Shown here piece after piece: positions 38,729 through 47,468 of a stretch of DNA of 64,000 nucleotides (within the stretch, counting starts at the first letter, position 1; each line of letters starts with the position of its first letter). The translations under genes were made by a program, and so were the position numbers. Under the pieces are notes generated by a model. The model did no database searches and was not told the DNA's origin. It saw nothing but the letters and a program-made list of their open reading frames with translations. Source of the stretch: an uncultured Candidatus Rokubacteria bacterium (lineage in GTDB: Bacteria > Methylomirabilota > Methylomirabilia > Rokubacteriales > CSP1-6); NCBI GenBank assembly GCA_963789955.1, contig CAWBMV010000012.1:442239-506238 (forward strand), read 5' to 3'.

Positions 38729-40481
38729 ATGGCCGTTGCGACGTGGGCGGGGCGGGGGCTCGCGTGGCCGCGCGTGCTTGCGTGGGCGTGGCTGCCGACC
38801 TTGCTGCTGATCGTCGTGGCCGTGCTCACGGTCACTCCCGTCGTCACCGCGCTGGTCGCGGGCTTCAGGGACGCGCCGCCCGGGCGGCCGGGATCGATCT
38901 CGTGGGAGTCGATTCGCGCCTCGCTCGGCGTGATGGCGGATCCGGACGTCTGGCGGATCCTCTGGACCACGGTGTGGCTCTCGACGGTGCGCGCGGTCCT
39001 GGCGCTGGCGCTCGCGGTCGTGCTGGCGTGGATCATCGCGCGCACGGACTGTCCGTTCCGCAACCGGCTCGAGTTCCTGCTGATTCTCTCGTTCTTCTTC
39101 CCGCTCCTCGGTAAGGTGCTCGGCTGGGCGCTGCTCCTGAGCCCTCAGAAGGGCTATCTGAACCAGCTCCTGCGCCATCTGCCGATCTTCGCGGGGGACA
39201 CCGGACCGCTCGACATCTTCTCCTACGGCGGCCTGATCTTCGTGAGCGTGACCGGCTGGGCCACCTTGCTCGCGATCTTCCTGATCCCGGCCTTCCGCAA
39301 CATGGACGCGGCGCTCGAGGAATCGGCGCGGATGTGCGGCGCCTCGCCGCGACGGACGGTGATGCGCATCCTCGTGCCGCTCCTGCGGCCCGCCATCCTG
39401 GCCGCGTTCATCCTGTCGCTCACGCGGCTGCTCTCCTCGTTCGAGACCGAAGTGTTCCTCGGCACGAGCTCGGGGATCTACGTCCTGACGAACAAGATCT
39501 ACGAGCGCATGGTGCAGATCTTCCCCCCGGACTTCCGCACGGGCATGACGATGGCGGTCATGCTGCTGGTCATCACGTTCGGGCTCGTGCTCGTGAACTG
39601 GCGGTTCCTGGGCAAGCGCGACTACACGACCGTGAGCGGGCGCGGCTACTCGGCGCGACCGATGGCGCTCGGCCGGCTCCGCTGGGTCGCCTTCGGCTTC
39701 GTCGTGCTGTTCTTCGTGGTCACGGTGGTCCTGCCCGCCGTGATGCTGATCCAGGTGAGCTTCATCCGGTTCATCGGGCTGAACGTCTTCGACCCGGCGA
39801 GCTACACCCTCGACAACTGGCGGCGGATGCTCGACGCTCGCGGATCAATCGCCTGGCGCTGACCAACAGCCTCATCATGAGCATCGTCGCCACGACGGTC
39901 GGGATGGTCATCTACTCGCTCGTCTCCTACGTCGTCACCAAGAGCCGGTACAGGGGACGGCGGCTGCTCGACCTGGTGGCCTGGGTGCCGTGGGCGGTGC
40001 CGTCGCTCGTGCTCGGCCTCGGCATCCTCTGGGCCGTTCTTCTTTCGCCGCTCGCCGTCCTCTATGGCACCTTGACCGTGTTGATCCTGGCTCACATCGT
40101 GCGCGGCTTTCCGTTCGGGACGCAGATCATGGGCTCGAGCATGATCCAGATCAGCCGCGAGCTCGAGGAGGCCGCGCGCATCCACAAGGCGTCGTGGCCC
40201 TCGACCTTTCGGCGAATCTGGCTGCCCCTGGTGAAGAACGGCTTCGTGGCGGGGTGGGTGATCCAGTTCACCGTGTCGTTCAGCGACCTGGCGACGGTGG
40301 CGTTCCTGTACGGCGCCAAGTCGACCGTGCTGCCGACGCTCTTCCTGAGCCAGTGGTCCAACGGGCGCCTCGAAGAGGCGGCGGTCGCGGCCCTGATGAT
40401 GACGGCGATCGTCTCTGGCGGTGGTCGTCGCTCGTGCGGCGGCTCGTGCAGGGCAGCGTCCGTACGACGACCGTGGCGTAA
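38729..40481 (+). CDS. ABC permease, FbpB-like with two EAA modules (frameshifts near 39850 and 40420)
   Basis: MDAALEESARMCGA and ISRELEEAARIH. Confidence 0.85.
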
Positions 40482-40533
40482 GCTGTGCGAGCCGAGGACG
40501 TCGCGGGGCCGGGGCCCCGCGGCCGAGGCGAGC
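40482..40533 (+). repeat. Dispersed ~54-nt structured element, copy 3
   Basis: GCTGTGCGAGCCGAGGACGTCGCGGGGCCGGGGCCCCGCGGCCGAGGCGAGC. Confidence 0.8.
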
Positions 40534-40551
40534 CATGAAGGAGGCAACGCG

Positions 40552-41913
40552 ATGCTTTCCAGAGAAGACAACGAGCTGCTCTGTCGCGTCGGACCCGGGA
40601 CGCCGATGGGCGACCTGATGCGCCAGTACTGGATCCCCGCGCTCATGTCGAGCGAGCTGCCGGAGCGCCGACGGCCCGCCGGTGCGCGTCCGGCTGCTCG
40701 GCGAGAACCTGATCGCCTTCCGCGTCACGTCCGGCAAGGTCGGGCTGATCCAGAACCACTGCCCGCACCGCGGCGCCTCGCTCTTCTTCGGGCGCAACGA
40801 GGAGGAAGGCCTGCGCTGCGTGTACCACGGCTGGAAGTTCGACTGCGAGGGCGCCTGCGTCGACATGCCGAACGAGCCGGCGGAGAGCAACTTCAAGTCG
40901 AAGATCCGCGCCACGGCCTACCCGTGCGTGGAGCGGAACGGCATCATCTGGACCTACATGGGCCCGCGCCAGACGCCGCCGCCCTTGCCGGACATCGAGC
41001 CGAACATGCTGCCGCAGGGCGAGTACGCAGGTCCAGAAGGTGCTGCGCGAGTGCAACTGGTTCCAGGGGCTCGAGGGCGACATCGACACGAGCCACCTCG
41101 GCTTCCTGCACCTCGGCGCCGTCAAGCCCGAGCAGACCGACGCCCGGGCACGTTCGACTACTACAACGTCGCCGACCGCGCGCCGAAGTACGAGGTCGTC
41201 GACACGGAGTTCGGCACGTCGTACGGCGCCTACCGGCCGGCGGAAGCCGGACACGTACTACTGGCGCATCGCCCACTTCCTGTTCCCGTTCTACACGATG
41301 ATCCCGACCGGCATTCTCGGCGATGCAGGTGCTCGTCCGCGCCTGGGTGCCGGTCGACGACGACCACATCATGTTCTGGAGCATCGCGGCGCCGCGCTCC
41401 CGCGTGGGCAACGGCGCCACGGGCGGCGCGCCGGCGCTCAGCGCCGGCGGGCGGCCGGTCGCGGCGGCCGGCTCGCGGGCCGGCGGCTTCGAGTTCCTGC
41501 CGGACACGCTCGGACTGGACTCGGCAAGTTCCGCCTGGCCCAGAACAAGGACAACGACTACCTGATCGACCGCGAGGCCCAGCGCACGACGAGCTACACC
41601 GGGCATCGCCGGCATCCACCAGCAGGACCAGGCCGTCACCGAGAGCATGGGGCCGATCTACGACCGCGACGCAGGAGCACCTCGGGACGCTCTGACGCGA
41701 TGGTCATTCGCACGCGGCGCCGCGTGATCAACGCCGCGCGGGCGCTGCGCGACAACGGCACGATGCCGCCCGGCGTCGACGATCCCGACGGTCTATCGCT
41801 ACCGCTCGGGCGGCGTCATCCTGCCGCGCGACGCCGACTGGCTCGAGGCCACCAAGGAGCTGCGCGCGCGCGTTGCGCCCGAGGCGCCTCCGCCGGAGCA
41901 GATCGCGCGATGA
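40552..41913 (+). CDS. Rieske oxygenase alpha subunit, phthalate 4,5-dioxygenase/LigXa-like (multiple frameshifts)
   Basis: MLSREDNELLCRVGPGTPMG, CPHRGASL..CVYHGWKFD, EGDIDTSHLGFLH and QDQAVTESMG. Confidence 0.85.
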
Positions 41914-42864
41914 CGACGGCCAACGGGCGACGGCGGACTGCTCAAGACCGCCGTCGCGACGTACGCGCACACGAAGGGGCTGAAGGACGGCAGCGTGACG
42001 GTGCCCGGCACCGGCTCGAGCACGTCGAGGTCAGCCCGATCGTCGCCGCGTTTCGCCGGATGGTGCCGCACGCTCGAGTTCGACGTGTCCGAGATGGCGA
42101 TCACGACGTACCTGACGGCGAAGGCCCACGGCAAGGCGTTCACGGCCCTGCCGGTGTTCGTCATGCGCCAGTTTCATCACACGCCGATCGTCTACAACGT
42201 GAAGTCGGGCGTGAAGTCGCCGAAGGATCTCGAGGGCAAGAAGGTCGGCGTGCGCGCCTACACCGTCACGACCGGCGTCTGGGCGCGGGGCATCCTGGCG
42301 ACGGAGTACGGCGTCGATCTCTCCAAGGTCACGTGGGTCGTCGTCGACGAGGAGCACGTGCAGGAGTACCAGAAGCCGGCCAACGTGCGAGGAGCGCCCG
42401 GGCGCGAACCTCGGCGAGATGCTGGCCAAGGGCGAGCTGGCGGCGGCCATCGGCGCCGGCACGGTCGATTCGCCGGACGTGCAGCCGCTCGTTCGCGAAC
42501 CCGCGCGAGGCCGAGGCCGCGTGGTACCGGAAGACGGGGATCTATCCCGTCAATCACACGGTCGTCGTGAAGGATTCGCTGCTCCAGTCCGATCCGACCC
42601 TGGCGCCGCGCCTGTTCGGCGCCTTCAAGGACGCGAAGGCCGCTGTTCATGAAGCAGCTCGATTCGGGGGCGACCTTGCCCGCCGACGCTCAGGCCGTCG
42701 CCCAGCGCCGGAGCATCGTCGGCGACGACCCGTTGCCGTATGGCGTCGCCAGGAACCGCAAGGCGCTGGAGGCCATCATCCAGTTCGCGCGCGACCAGAA
42801 GATCCTGCCGCGCGCGGTGACCCCCGAGGAGATGTTTCCCCGCAACACCCTCGATCTCGAGTAG
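41910..42864 (+). CDS. 4,5-dihydroxyphthalate decarboxylase-like protein (multiple frameshifts)
   Basis: EFDVSEMA, ALPVF, GVRAYTVTTGVWARGIL, GIYPVNHTVV and DPLPYGV. Confidence 0.78.
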
Positions 42865-42866
42865 CC

Positions 42867-42932
42867 ATGCGCTTCGAGCGAGCCGTCCCGGTCCTTCAGG
42901 TCGCCGACGTCGGCCGGAGCATCGACTGGTAA
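42867..42932 (+). pseudogene. Truncated VOC/glyoxalase N-terminus
   Basis: MRFERAVPVLQVADVGRSIDW then stop; matches the start of the glyoxalase/bleomycin-resistance fold. Confidence 0.5.
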
Positions 42933-43090
42933 CGGCTTCGTGGACCAGGAAGGCGAGGTCGCCGCCGGCATCGGCGATTCGTCCGCGGAGGAAGCTACGA
43001 GCTCGGCGGCGGTCCGCCCTCGTCTTGACGCCGAGCGGCCGGGACTAGGATGCTCGCCTACCAGTCGGCTCGATCGTCGGGGAGGGCTTC

Positions 43091-44120
43091 ATGATCATCG
43101 ACTGTCACGGCCACTACACGACGGCACCGAAGGAGCTCGAGGCGTTCCGGCAGAAGCAGATCGCCGAGCTCAAGGAGCCCTCGCGCGCTCGCGCCGAAGG
43201 CCGCCATCAGCATCAGCGACGACCAGATCCGCGAATCGCTCGAGAAGGCGCAGCTCGAAGCTCCAGCGCGAGCGCGGCACCGACGTCACGATCTTCTCGC
43301 CGCGCGCGGCCGGCATGGGCCATCACATCGGCGACGCGACCACGAGCCTGCACTGGTCGGAGGTGTGCAACGACCTGATCCACCGCGTGCTGCACGCTCT
43401 ATCCCGCAGAACTTCGTCGGCGTGTGCCAGCTGCCGCAGACGCCGGGCGTGCCGCCGACCAACTGCATCGCGGAGCTCGAGCGCTGCGTCAAGGAATTCG
43501 GGTTCATCGGCTGCAACCTGAACCCGGACCCGTCGGGCGGCTACTGGACGGATCCGCCGCTCACCGACAAGTGGTGGTATCCGTTCTACGAGAAGCTGGT
43601 CGAGCTCGACGTGCCGGCGATGATCCACGTGAGCGTGTCCTGCAACCCGAACTTCCACACGACCGGCGGCCACTACATCAACGGCGACACGACGGCGTTC
43701 ATGCAGCTGATCACCGCCGACCTCTTCAAGGATTTCCCGACGCCTCAAGTTCATCATCCCGCACGGCGGCGGCGCGGTGCCCTATCACTGGGGCCGCTAC
43801 CGCGGCCTCGCGCAGGACTGAAGAAGCCGCTCCTGAAGGACCATCTGCTCAACAACGTGTTCTTCGACACCTGCGTCTATCACCAGCCGGGCATCGATCT
43901 CCTGTTCAAGGTGATCCCCGTCGACAACATCCTCTTCGCCTCGGAGATGGTCGGCGCGGTGCGCGGCATCGACCCGGAGACCGGCAACTACTACGACGAC
44001 ACCAAGCGCTACATCGACGCGCTCGACGACTCAGCGACGAAGACCGGCGCAAGATCTTCGAGGGCAACGCGCGCCGCGTCTACAGCGCGCTTGAAGAACA
44101 AGATTCCGGCCTCGCGCTAG
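43091..44120 (+). CDS. ligJ: 4-oxalomesaconate hydratase (LigJ-like; multiple frameshifts)
   Basis: MIIDCHGHYTTAP, CNLNPDPSGG, IIPHGGGAVPYHWGRYRG, FFDTCVYHQPG and FASEMVGAV. Confidence 0.85.
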
Positions 44121-44129
44121 GAGAGATCC

Positions 44130-44993
44130 ATGGCTGAGATCCCGCGGCTGAACGGCGTCATCAGAGCGCTCGAGCAGGGCAAGACGGCCTTCGTCGGGTT
44201 CGGCTCGGTCGACATCGAGACCGCCACCGCGCTGGGGGCCTCGAACCTGGACGGCGTCGCGTTCGAGATGGAGCACGCGCCGATGAGCGCGCCCGCGCTG
44301 CGCGACGCGCTCCAGTACATGCTGGATCGGCGCCAGATCCTCGACTCCGGCACCCTGGCGCCCAAGGTGACGCCGCTCGTGCGGATCCCGCCGAACGGCG
44401 GCGAGATGAACCAGTGGATCGCCAAGCAGGTGCTCGACATCGGCGTCTTCGGCATCATCTTCCCGCACGTGAGCACGGTCGAGGAGGCGCGCAACGCCGT
44501 CAGCGCCTGCCGCTACCCGCGTCTCTCGAGCGCGCCCCGCTACGATCCGCCCGGCATTCGCGGCGACGCGCCGGCGCGGGCCGCGAAGTACTGGGGGCTC
44601 TCGCAGCAGGACTACTACGCGCGCGCCGACGTGTGGCCGCTGGCGCCGCAGGGCGAGATCCTCGCGATCATCCAGTGCGAGGACACGAAGGCGATCGAGA
44701 ACCTTCCGCGGATGCTCCAGGAAGTGCCGGGCATCGGCGTGGTGCTGATCGGCGAAGGGGATCTGAGCCAGGAGCTCGGCCACCCGCGCGAGTACGAGCA
44801 CCCCGTCGTGGCGGAAGCCATCGAGCGCATCTTGAAGATCTGCAAGGACCACAACGTGCCGTGCGGCCACCCGCATCCCGACGCGAAGAACATCGAGCGT
44901 CTGATCGCGAGCGGCTATCGCTTCCTGATGCCGAGCACGCCGCGCTCGTTCGGAGTGCTGGAGCAGGGGCGCAAGCTCGCCGGCCGAGTCTGA
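44130..44993 (+). CDS. HpcH/HpaI aldolase family protein
   Basis: EMEHAP, LVRIP, LDIGVFGIIFPHV, IQCED and IGEGDLS. Confidence 0.88.
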   Translation: MAEIPRLNGVIRALEQGKTAFVGFGSVDIETATALGASNLDGVAFEMEHAPMSAPALRDALQYMLDRRQILDSGTLAPKVTPLVRIPPNGGEMNQWIAKQVLDIGVFGIIFPHVSTVEEARNAVSACRYPRLSSAPRYDPPGIRGDAPARAAKYWGLSQQDYYARADVWPLAPQGEILAIIQCEDTKAIENLPRMLQEVPGIGVVLIGEGDLSQELGHPREYEHPVVAEAIERILKICKDHNVPCGHPHPDAKNIERLIASGYRFLMPSTPRSFGVLEQGRKLAGRV

Positions 44994-45186
44994 GGCGCGC
45001 AGGAGCCTAGCGTCCGGGCGCTGCCGATGCTCTCCAGGTCATTCCTGGACGAGATCGGTCGCGGAGCAGGCATCTGGGTCAGCGGGCTCTCGAAAGACGC
45101 GCGAGACAGGCGCCTGAGCCATCTGAGGCACGCGTGGGTGTGAACCTCGGAGCGATCGAGCGAGATCTAACCAAGAAGAGCCTCTG

Positions 45187-46171
45187 ATGGACAACGCCCT
45201 CGACACGCTCGCGCGCTACGGCTATCTCGTGGTCTTCGGCTCCGTCCTGGCCGAGCAGATCGGCATTCCGATCCCGGCCATACCGTTCCTCCTGGCTGCC
45301 GGCGGGCTGGCCGGGAGCGGTCGTCTCAGCCTTGCGCTGCTGCTGGCCCTGTCCGGCGTCGCGTCGCTGATGGCCGACCTGACCTGGTACTGGATCGGCC
45401 GACTCGGGGGCGCGCGCGTGCTCGGATGGCTCTGCCGCATCTCGCTCGAGCCCGATTCCTGTGTGCGGCGTACCCAGACGAGTTTCTCCAAGCACGGGTC
45501 GCGCACGCTCGTCTTTGCCAAGTTCGTTCCCGGCTTGAGCACCATCGCCCCGCCGCTGGCGGGCATCGTGCGGATGCCGCTGGGCCGGTTCGTGTTGTTC
45601 AGCGCCATCGGCGGCGTGGTCTGGGCCGGAGCGTTCATCGTCCTCGGCTGGGTGTTCAGCTACCAGCTCGAGCTCGTCGCCGGCTATGCCGCGCAGTTCG
45701 GGAGCTGGACGGCCGCCGCGCTCGGCGCCGCGCTCGGCGGCTACATCGCGTGGAAGTTCGTCTCGCGCCAGCGGTTCTTGAGGAAGATCCGGATCGCGCG
45801 GATCACGCCGGAACAGCTCAAGGCCATGATCGACGGCGGCGAGGCGCTGTTGATCGTCGACGTGCGCGACCGCATCGACTTCGAGTCCGAGCCGACGATC
45901 ATCCCGGGTGCGCTGCACCTGACGATCGAGGAGCTCGACGAGCGTCGACCTGGAGATCCCGCGCGAGCGCGAGATCGTCCTGTACTGCACCTGACCCAAC
46001 GAAGCCTCGAGCGCCCGTGTGGCGCTGATCCTGAGACGCCGCGGCATCGAGCGCGTACGGCCTCTGGCGGGCGGGTTCCGCGCCTGGAGAGACCTCGGCT
46101 ACCCGATGACCGCACTGGGACCTGCCGGCGGCTCTGACCCGACCAAGGGCCTCAGCCCGGCGCCGGCGTAG
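45187..46171 (+). CDS. DedA/VTT + rhodanese fusion protein; candidate selenoprotein (+1 indel near 45947, in-frame TGA 45992-45994)
   Basis: DedA motifs EQIGIPIP and FAKFVPG; after the frame change LEIPREREIVLYCT-TGA-PNEASSARVALILRRRGIERVRPLAGGFRAW continues to TAG 46171. Confidence 0.8.
46007..46028 (+). promoter_or_regulatory. Putative bacterial SECIS hairpin
   Basis: TC-g-AGCGCC-cgtgt-GGCGCT-GA; stem starts 13 nt after the TGA and the loop has GU at positions 2-3. Confidence 0.55.
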
Positions 46172-46208
46172 GGATCGCGGGCTCACCCGAAGCTGCTACC
46201 CTGAGCCC

Positions 46209-47468
46209 GTGGAGACGGGTCCGAACGCTCGCACGAGTGCCTGCATCGTGGGCGGGGGGCCGGGCGGCTTGCTGCTCGGCCTCCTGCTCGCCAAGCGGGG
46301 CGTCGACGTCATCGTGCTCGAAGGCCACGAGGACTTCGAGCGCGAGTTCCGCGGCGAGGTGCTCCAGCCGAGCACGTCGCACTTGCTGGACGAGCTCGGG
46401 CTGCTCGAGTACATCCTGGCCCAGCCGCACTCGCTCCTCGAGGTCGGCCGGATTCGCCTGAACGGCCGCGAGGTCGGCCAGTTCGAGTTCAAGCGGATCT
46501 CGCCGACCTATCCGTACGCCCTCTGGATGCCTCAGCCGATCTTCCTGGAGGCGCTTCGGCGCAAGGCCGCGGGGTTCCCCTCGTTCCAGTGCTGGATGGG
46601 CGCCAAGGCCACGAAGCTCATCGAGGAGAACGGCAAGGTCGTCGGCGTGAGCGGCCTGCGCCACGGCAAGGAGCCGTTCGAGGTTCGCGCCGACGTGGTC
46701 GTGGCGGCCGACGGGCGCTACTCGACCCTGGCGAAGCTCGGCGGCTTCGAGACCGAGTACGAGCGCCACGACTTCGACGTCATCTGGTTCACGATCGAGC
46801 AGCCGCCCGGGTGGGCGAGCACCTTCTACGTCTCGCTGGGCGAGGTGCGCGGCCTGATGCTGCCGAAGTATCCGCACCACATCCAGGTCGGCATCGTCCT
46901 GCCGACGGGCGAGTGGAAGCGCTGGCGCGACCAGGGCGTGGCGACGGTGGCCGATCGCATCCGCCGCTTCGACCCGATCTTCAAGGAGTTCGCCGGTTCT
47001 CTGCGAGACTTCAAGCCGTTCTTCCCGCTCGAGGGCCTCATTCGCCTGATGCGGCAGTGGTCGCGCGACGGGCTGTTGTTGATCGGCGACGCCGCGCACA
47101 CGATGAGCCCGGCCGGCGCCATCGGCGTCAACGTCGCGCTCGCGACCGCCGCGGTGGCCGCGCAGGTGCTCTACCCGCACTTCGGCCACGGCCCGATCGG
47201 GCGCGACGTCCTGCAGGAGGTCCAGCGGCTGCGCGAGGCCGACGTGCGCACCTTGCATCGCTTCCAGCTGGGCGCTCAGCGCGTGCTGCTGGGGCAGGGC
47301 AGCAGCAATCCGGTCGTGAAGTGGATGGCGCAGACGGCGATCCCGCTGGTCCTCAGATCGCCCCTGCTGCCGAGGCTCGCGCGACGGCTCTTCTTCGGGG
47401 CTCCGCTGCCGCCGATCGACCCCGCGTTCAGCTTTCGAGGCCCCGCTGGAGTCACGGCTCCGGGATAG
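46209..47468 (+). CDS. FAD-dependent oxidoreductase/monooxygenase (UbiH-like fold)
   Basis: IVGGGPGG, REFRGE, AADGRYS and LIGDAAHTMSPAGAIGVN. Confidence 0.9.
   Translation: METGPNARTSACIVGGGPGGLLLGLLLAKRGVDVIVLEGHEDFEREFRGEVLQPSTSHLLDELGLLEYILAQPHSLLEVGRIRLNGREVGQFEFKRISPTYPYALWMPQPIFLEALRRKAAGFPSFQCWMGAKATKLIEENGKVVGVSGLRHGKEPFEVRADVVVAADGRYSTLAKLGGFETEYERHDFDVIWFTIEQPPGWASTFYVSLGEVRGLMLPKYPHHIQVGIVLPTGEWKRWRDQGVATVADRIRRFDPIFKEFAGSLRDFKPFFPLEGLIRLMRQWSRDGLLLIGDAAHTMSPAGAIGVNVALATAAVAAQVLYPHFGHGPIGRDVLQEVQRLREADVRTLHRFQLGAQRVLLGQGSSNPVVKWMAQTAIPLVLRSPLLPRLARRLFFGAPLPPIDPAFSFRGPAGVTAPG

Follow-up and report, generated by a model that had tools for sequence, protein, structure and literature searches.

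Layout of the locus

The window is a stretch of 64,000 nucleotides (G000:C12:442239-506238) from a 6.8-Mb, 68% GC draft genome of an uncultured Candidatus Rokubacteria bacterium. It displays an open reading frame called at positions 45187–46137 that departs from the true frame near position 45947, as was noticed in an initial examination of the letters alone (termed here the sequence-only reading). One base over, the translation is EIVLYCT-TGA-PNEASSARVALILRRRGIERVRPLAGGFRAW, with PNEASSARVAL at the start of the segment after the TGA. All elements of the gene that had been described are in place, i.e. the TGA, 58 open codons after it and a TAG at 46169–46171. Table 1 lists the features.

Table 1. 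Features of the DedA-rhodanese locus (positions in the window).
Feature	Position	Strand	Remarks
DedA(VTT)-rhodanese gene	45187–46171	+	327 codons + TAG if one extra base is discounted; putative Sec is residue 269
VTT/DedA membrane domain	45271–45651	+	residues 29–155; PF09335, E-value = 1.1e-13
Conserved C83-x8-C92 pair (LCRISLEPDSC) in DedA domain	45433–45462	+	predicted to be on the cytoplasmic side
Rhodanese domain, CxU type	45805–46092	+	about residues 207–301; PF00581; NF041203; fold matches up to Z 17
One extra frame-shifting base	45946–45948	+	probable assembly error
C267, predicted canonical rhodanese catalytic position at β-strand end	45986–45988	+	alignments to 3tp9, 2hhg, 6mxv domain 2; model strand 262–266
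In-frame TGA, predicted to be read as selenocysteine (U269)	45992–45994	+	comparative evidence
Putative SECIS hairpin	46010–46026	+	AGCGCC (46010–46015), loop CGTGT (46016–46020), GGCGCT (46021–46026); 6-bp stem, 5-nt loop CGUGU, 21 nt UGA-to-loop, −9.2 kcal/mol; loop G (46017) 23 nt past the TGA

The N-terminal part gives 52.2 bits with PF09335 (gathering score 33.9), which places it in the DedA/VTT superfamily. The Pfam rhodanese match is split across the frame shift and is found on both sides of it. Intact orthologues (G001–G004 and G009) have chain lengths of 315–340 aa and one TGA each.

An alignment to seven orthologues shows that the extra base at about 45947 is missing in all seven. 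It is also omitted by one contig in each of the public runs X1, X4 and X15, compared over positions 44900–46500, these contigs being from similar strains, possibly other than the source strain; X3 has no depth there. The comparison with these contigs agrees with the indel assumed in the sequence-only reading. At the TGA site no difference appears among the rows listed of this comparison, besides which there are 63 further rows. Assembly frame shifts are present in selD and in a paralogue on contig C21 as well. Since the base is missing in orthologues and in similar contigs, and since these two other genes are also frame shifted, the extra base is probably an assembly error. The RNA run X15 (share 0.18) yields short contigs on the gene, none of which spans the TGA, and these were not taken as expression.

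The intergenic region upstream of the gene (45008–45170) is skipped or replaced in contigs of X1, X3 and X4, and is thus strain-variable. Further upstream, positions 40400–44120 display a Rieske oxygenase-like gene, a ligand-binding protein and an amidohydrolase that precede an aldolase gene and are broken into several frames. The region resembles an aromatic degradation cluster with assembly indels; the names come from a reading of the open reading frames, and that of the amidohydrolase was confirmed on an orthologue.

Conservation of the TGA codon

The five closest orthologues in the genus are 91%–98% identical over the C-terminal 55 aa, and their frames are uninterrupted and contain exactly one TGA. 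Among 50 motif-bearing frames (from 53 loci) the codon is TGA in 47, and TGC, GAG and AGC in one each. Across 251 genomes of the phylum (probably Methylomirabilota) TGA is present in 143 of the 150 best matches and is absent from the other seven; there are 275 weaker matches besides. Two close homologues, G011:C138 (L030) and G175:C51, do not have the TGA, and their genomes contain TGA paralogues and selB besides, which makes them useful as natural Sec/Cys pairs. The L030 codon is TGC, and the hairpin is absent from L030 as well.

A scan of GTDB genomes with the TGA pattern gave at least 120 matches. The 80 named records among the matches listed are from Acidobacteriota, Rokubacteria/Methylomirabilota, Myxococcota, Gammaproteobacteria, Dehalococcoidia, Binatia and Nitrospirota; by motif, 70 are of the DedA type and 10 are other forms or incomplete. 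The frame downstream of the codon is open for at least 35 codons in all 119 closed TGA loci among the matches listed, and the sequence past the TGA is conserved coding sequence.

The TGA column is Cys in homologues, not Trp or Gly. Of the 120 best database proteins, 43 continue with CxC, as the sequence-only reading had anticipated, 76 end exactly at YCT/YCS, and one is the window's own frame-shifted product. The same YCT/YCS motif terminates 42 of 150 cluster representatives, and many database entries of DedA-rhodanese proteins are given as 268 aa. The expectation that automatic annotation would cut the protein short is therefore borne out by the 76 proteins that stop at the Sec codon.

The SECIS-like hairpin

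The bacterial SECIS model specifies a loop of 3–9 nt, a stem of 4–16 bp, a G in the first two loop positions, a spacing of 16–37 nt and a minimum free energy of −7.5 kcal/mol or lower (PMC13188914, accessible part). The stem-loop pointed out in the sequence-only reading is present, has the G second in its loop and lies within every one of these limits (Table 1). Among the matches listed, the model is passed by 106 of 120 TGA loci vs. 12 of 120 Cys loci. The Cys control was the same pattern with TGC or TGT, searched in metagenomes (at least 120 matches), and is a different collection from the TGA set. In the source genome, 177 of 2402 ordinary TGA stops of long open reading frames also satisfy the loose model, and 37 of 2402 satisfy a strict one. 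By itself the hairpin therefore carries little weight; it is the comparative evidence that lifts the case above chance.

Part of this evidence is in the codons of the SARVA segment. Among distinct sequences encoding SARVA, the stem is complete, with six pairs, in 62 of 75 TGA forms vs. 4 of 26 Cys forms. Every one of the 75 TGA forms has GCC for Ala, GTG for Val and CGT or CGG for Arg, vs. 18, 14 and 13 of the 26 Cys forms, respectively. Loop positions 2–3 are G followed by G or U in 120 of 120 TGA loci vs. 25 of 120 Cys loci among the matches listed. By this comparison the synonymous sites of the hairpin are fixed in TGA forms and free in Cys forms.

Kinship was controlled for with a FastTree phylogeny of 136 DedA-type rows, calculated from the sequence that precedes the site, to which rows whose 5′ flank is short may add a few residues beyond it; loci with insufficient flank were omitted. 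The tree displays 22 switches between TGA and Cys, of which 15 are forced by well-supported branches. On it, the named record closest to one near orthologue belongs to Ca. Methylomirabilota, on which the probable phylum assignment is based. In 15 independent pairs on the tree the hairpin signature, which was defined after the data were seen, follows TGA in 10.6, goes against it in 0 and is unchanged in 4.4 (p about 0.001). The signature is carried by 8 of 62 Cys forms, and these are possibly recent Sec-to-Cys changes. Covariation of the stem (counts for U-A with C-G: 10, 2, 1, 105 in the TGA set; 7, 5, 13, 83 in the Cys set) looks strong but was given little weight: the weaker version found in the Cys set indicates that it is in part codon bias or a relic.

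Selenocysteine machinery and the decoding of the TGA

The genome contains selA, selB and selC together on contig C1 and selD on C6, all four above curated cut-offs. The selD gene, frame shifted in the assembly, has its own CAG-U-ASK motif. The TGA codons of selD (G000:C6:164410, CAG-TGA-ASK) and of a formate dehydrogenase-like gene (G000:C22:541858, ARV-TGA-HGP) are each associated with a SECIS-like hairpin; the loop G is at positions 25 and 23 in these two, vs. 26 in the DedA-rhodanese gene. C6:83810 is a weaker TGA candidate.

A selB match was found in 214 of the 251 phylum genomes. Ten TGA-bearing genomes without one were examined: three have selA, and in the other seven, all drafts, no selA, selB or selC was found. 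An in-frame TGA is present in the selD of five of these seven; in the sixth the only selD lacks TGA, and the seventh has no selD. The selD genes with TGA in five of the seven point to a missing contig as the reason for the absent sel genes in most of these drafts. In a second phylum sample (251 genomes centred on an Acidobacteriota genome that was picked for its TGA), selA is present in all 36 genomes that have the TGA motif, vs. 5 of the 13 that have the Cys motif and 194 of the whole 251; in the 36-genome count two matches look like chance, the motif is blind to fusion type and related genomes are not independent, and an unpublished genome (G278) enters the overall selA tally only. One genome (G241) has two tRNA-Sec matches above the Rfam cut-off, at C21:228131 and C21:394561.

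Two other explanations of the TGA were weighed. One is that it is a true stop, or that this copy is a pseudogene with both a frame shift and a nonsense codon. The frame shift 45 nt before the TGA and the many database proteins of 268 aa would fit this, and it should be noted that the public-run contigs, from similar strains, do not by themselves prove the TGA, the lack of a difference there applying to the listed rows. However, the orthologues have no frame shift, contigs of three runs do not have the extra base, frame shifts affect selD and the C21 paralogue in the same assembly as well, and the frames past the TGA remain open in every closed locus listed; a stop or a pseudogene is thus very improbable. 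The other explanation, a genome-wide reassignment of UGA to Trp or Gly or a non-specific readthrough, for which no support was found, is more improbable still: TGA terminates the 2402 long open reading frames mentioned above, the only tRNA with a TCA anticodon that ARAGORN finds in the genome is the tRNA-Sec, and the codon aligns to Cys.

With the TGA kept in relatives, the downstream coding sequence conserved, the sel genes present and the extra base missing from similar contigs, the central proposal of the sequence-only reading can be retained. It is very highly probable that the gene encodes a selenoprotein, in which SelB would bind the hairpin and the UGA at 45992 would be read as Sec, with a DedA domain in the inner membrane and a C267-T-U269 rhodanese domain. 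The real product is almost certainly a membrane protein of 327 residues with a selenium-containing enzyme domain, as judged from these comparisons.

Protein anatomy

An AlphaFold2 model of the orthologue P0001 (133 sequences; pLDDT 93, pTM 0.81) shows a membrane domain made of helices, followed by a linker helix that extends to residue 201 and by the rhodanese domain, in which a strand ends at 266 and U269 is just before a helix at 270–284. Fold searches gave Z-scores of 14–17 to TVG0868615, a persulfide dioxygenase-rhodanese and GlpE; the results are filled by the rhodanese domain and barely cover the membrane part. Sequence and profile searches found no relatives of the DedA domain among solved structures, and a single-sequence model of this domain has a pLDDT of 58.

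In the model, with the strand ending at residue 266, C267 appears to occupy the canonical catalytic place. Most alignments with solved rhodaneses (3tp9, 2hhg and 6mxv domain 2) likewise place C267 at the catalytic Cys, with two extra residues in the loop relative to the six-residue active-site loop of the GlpE type; one alignment, to 6mxv domain 1, puts the catalytic Cys on residue 269. The catalytic loop does not have the G-x-R of solved rhodaneses. The sequence-only reading had described a DedA domain tethered to a Sec-sulfurtransferase. The DedA-Sec-rhodanese arrangement stands, but the label sulfurtransferase is not established, C267 taking the place of the nucleophile in most alignments and U269 being two residues further on.

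Conservation is no lower in the DedA domain than in the rhodanese domain, and the former has near-invariant residues of its own. C267 is present in 72 of 78 full-length cluster representatives, C83 in 71 and C92 in 70, and a C-x8-C is found in all 126 DedA-type loci. Coupling between the two pairs is imperfect: of 13 representatives that have lost the CxC, 11 retain C83/C92, and of 76 that have it, 8 are without C83, C92 or both. Basic residues flanking a membrane segment mark the cytoplasmic side (the positive-inside rule), and from the basic residues that flank them both Cys pairs probably face the cytoplasm.

Relationship to DedA flippases

The protein has a VTT domain in common with YqjA, YghB and UptA, and keeps the first acidic residue as well as, at the second re-entrant tip, a basic one. 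It is 26% identical to YqjA, and the added C-x8-C pair and the C-terminal rhodanese domain set it apart. The residues E39 and D51 of YqjA are the acidic positions of re-entrant helix 1. The first is kept as E23 (105 of 138 rows have E or D); the D51 position is Pro, as in 123 of 141 rows. The R130 position is Lys (K or R in 138 of 146 rows) and the R136 position is Ser (mostly S, N or A). The two acidic and two Arg residues of the COG0586 UndP flippases (YqjA/UptA type) are thus not all present, and the UptA and DedA models give 51–57 bits against cut-offs of 236–300. The Arg positions of re-entrant helix 2 are given for YghB in the accessible part of PMC10127716, which places rhodanese fusions in the COG0586 UndP-flippase subfamily and calls the link between rhodanese and UndP unclear.

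The genome also has separate, plain DedA genes. One of them, about 5 kb before selC on C1, was not taken as linked; it is located between an H+-pyrophosphatase and a lipid A acyltransferase.

Relationship to known selenoproteins and other fusions

A catalogue of 2026 lists 119 selenoprotein families in its Table 1, five of which are rhodanese forms, form 3 being the CxU type (PMC13188914, accessible part). Form 3 (= COG0607 form 2; NF041203 rhodanese_LYCAU; TKB26178.1) shares the fold and the motif LYCxU-PxE, with IVLYCAUPNEYTSAR there and IVLYCTUPNEASSAR here; its example motif IVLYCAUPNE is in supplement 3 of PMC12013277 (seen in part), and a UxU variant is mentioned in the accessible part of PMC1976440. 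Rhodanese-like selenoproteins had therefore been reported already, as the sequence-only reading stated, and only the DedA fusion is unlisted. The best NCBIfam match is NF041203, with 85.8 bits (E-value = 1.7e-24) on P0001, below the cut-off of 115, and 54.2 bits on the C-terminal piece from the window. Unlike form 3, a stand-alone domain of about 126–150 aa with a 126-position model and a single-domain example, the present protein is a fusion of 315–340 aa in which the rhodanese is located behind a DedA domain.

Cys-form DedA-rhodanese proteins (“DedA family protein/thiosulfate sulfurtransferase GlpE”, e.g. Pseudomonas aeruginosa PA1209 and a Cupriavidus metallidurans homologue) have the same two-domain architecture and are 311–324 aa long, but have Cys in place of Sec and a hairpin that is not fixed. 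In the accessible parts of PMC10127716 and PMC12893004 such fusions are mentioned as Cys proteins without a clear role. A Sec rhodanese within a larger fusion is also known (UxxxxU motif), with another partner domain; its model gives 19.8 bits against a cut-off of 805.

The terms DedA, VTT and SNARE do not occur in the accessible text of the catalogue (PMC13188914), nor do DedA or VTT in that of PMC12013277 and its four supplements, and rhodanese is not mentioned in the accessible texts on BSepDB (PMC13326102, supplement in part) and SelCysML (PMC13745706). Full-text literature searches, judged partly by title and the start of the abstract and with Deng 2026, Haft & Tolstoy 2025 and the BSepDB records outside their scope, found no report of a Sec form of DedA-rhodanese. 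The predicted DedA-rhodanese selenoprotein is thus a new domain arrangement of a known Sec rhodanese, and the fusion is absent from the 119-family catalogue of 2026. Deng 2026 is said to describe a Methylomirabilota MAG with 63 selenoproteins.

Several related loci were encountered. The paralogue on C21 (G000:C21:7968-8892, minus strand) is a second DedA-rhodanese, 51% identical, with a TGA and a hairpin, and is convergent with a gene pair for encapsulin and encapsulated ferritin. A frame of about 510 aa that combines a trypsin-like protease and a transmembrane helix (G000:C30:21884-22036 and L326:9851-11384, both minus strand) carries the same CxU rhodanese with its hairpin (YCS-TGA-PDE). Matches of this protease type with a TGA, in frames of about 525 aa, occur in several members of the genus, and this fusion was not seen in the catalogue table. 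Three records (L093, L105 and L118, TGA at 1210, plus strand), from Acidobacteriota, Dehalococcoidia and Myxococcota, display a Na+/H+ exchanger (PF00999) with the TGA-containing rhodanese motif. Taken as a whole, these loci might represent a portable module, i.e. a CxU rhodanese with a built-in SECIS that soil bacteria would have put on at least three kinds of membrane protein (DedA, Na+/H+ exchanger and trypsin-like protease), a speculation to which we give little credence at this breadth.

Possible function

A tentative reading, which we put at somewhat less than an even chance, is that the protein acts at the membrane as a thiol/selenol relay, its substrate being a chalcogen oxyanion (e.g. 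selenite) or a sulfur species (e.g. thiosulfate, polysulfide). The anion would be admitted or bound by the DedA domain; its capture and reduction by the reactive selenolate and C267 would yield a seleno- or persulfide adduct, which the C83/C92 pair and cellular thiols would accept or resolve. The Cys forms would do the same job with lower efficiency. In favor of this reading are the presence of four redox residues, the altered flippase site and the connection of a C. metallidurans DedA protein with selenite. A 2005 screen in C. metallidurans reportedly gave a selenite phenotype for a DedA protein, said to be of 316 aa with a rhodanese domain and two Cys. The chromid of this species encodes a full-length Cys homologue of 324 aa, 37% identical and with both Cys pairs, which may or may not be the gene of that screen, given the difference in length. 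The relay is weakened by the imperfect coupling of the Cys pairs, by the Sec module on exchangers and a protease, and by the neighborhood, as no recurring selenium- or sulfur-pathway gene was found among 82 neighboring proteins from 20 stretches; the adjoining aldolase and FAD monooxygenase genes are common to the closest relatives only.

A doubtful though possible alternative is that the CxU rhodanese is a redox or persulfide sensor, not a catalyst, whose oxidation state would gate, via C83/C92, a DedA domain acting as a transporter of lipid or UndP, or as a proton-coupled transporter. The fusion of the same Sec module and hairpin to Na+/H+ exchangers and to a membrane-anchored protease favors a sensor role over a dedicated transport partner. 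The active-site loop, longer by two residues and without G-x-R, is in accordance with this, as are the conservation at the E39 and R130 positions and the COG0586 placement of rhodanese fusions given above. The Pro at the D51 position, the residues at R136, the low scores with the UptA and DedA models and the presence of plain DedA genes argue against it, and the reported selenite phenotype points to an oxyanion instead. It is unlikely, more so than the sensor, that the protein is an ordinary membrane-tethered sulfurtransferase (thiosulfate to cyanide or a thiol acceptor), or a metalloid reductase like the rhodanese-fold arsenate reductases, with DedA mainly as an anchor. The clear rhodanese fold, the conservation of C267 and the 6mxv domain 1 alignment on residue 269 are compatible with such an enzyme. 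However, the DedA domain is conserved beyond the needs of an anchor, and C-x5-R, the motif of the arsenate reductase or Cdc25 type, is absent from the sequence.

Significance

The surprise is moderate, because the CxU rhodanese was already known. Still, the finding would correct a systematic annotation error, by which half of the rhodanese domain is missing from 76 of the 120 closest database proteins, and would add a membrane selenoprotein that is common among soil phyla (Methylomirabilota, Acidobacteriota), in contrast to the mostly anaerobic organisms that are named as richest in selenoproteins (2026 review, PMC13188914, accessible part).

The DedA-rhodanese selenoprotein bears on the role of rhodanese domains on DedA proteins, a question raised in PMC10127716, and on whether prokaryotes own a specific selenium transporter, raised in PMC13188914 (both as far as accessible). 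Both questions are testable, as nature provides Sec/Cys pairs (the tree shows at least 15 switches) and the culturable C. metallidurans has a Cys homologue.
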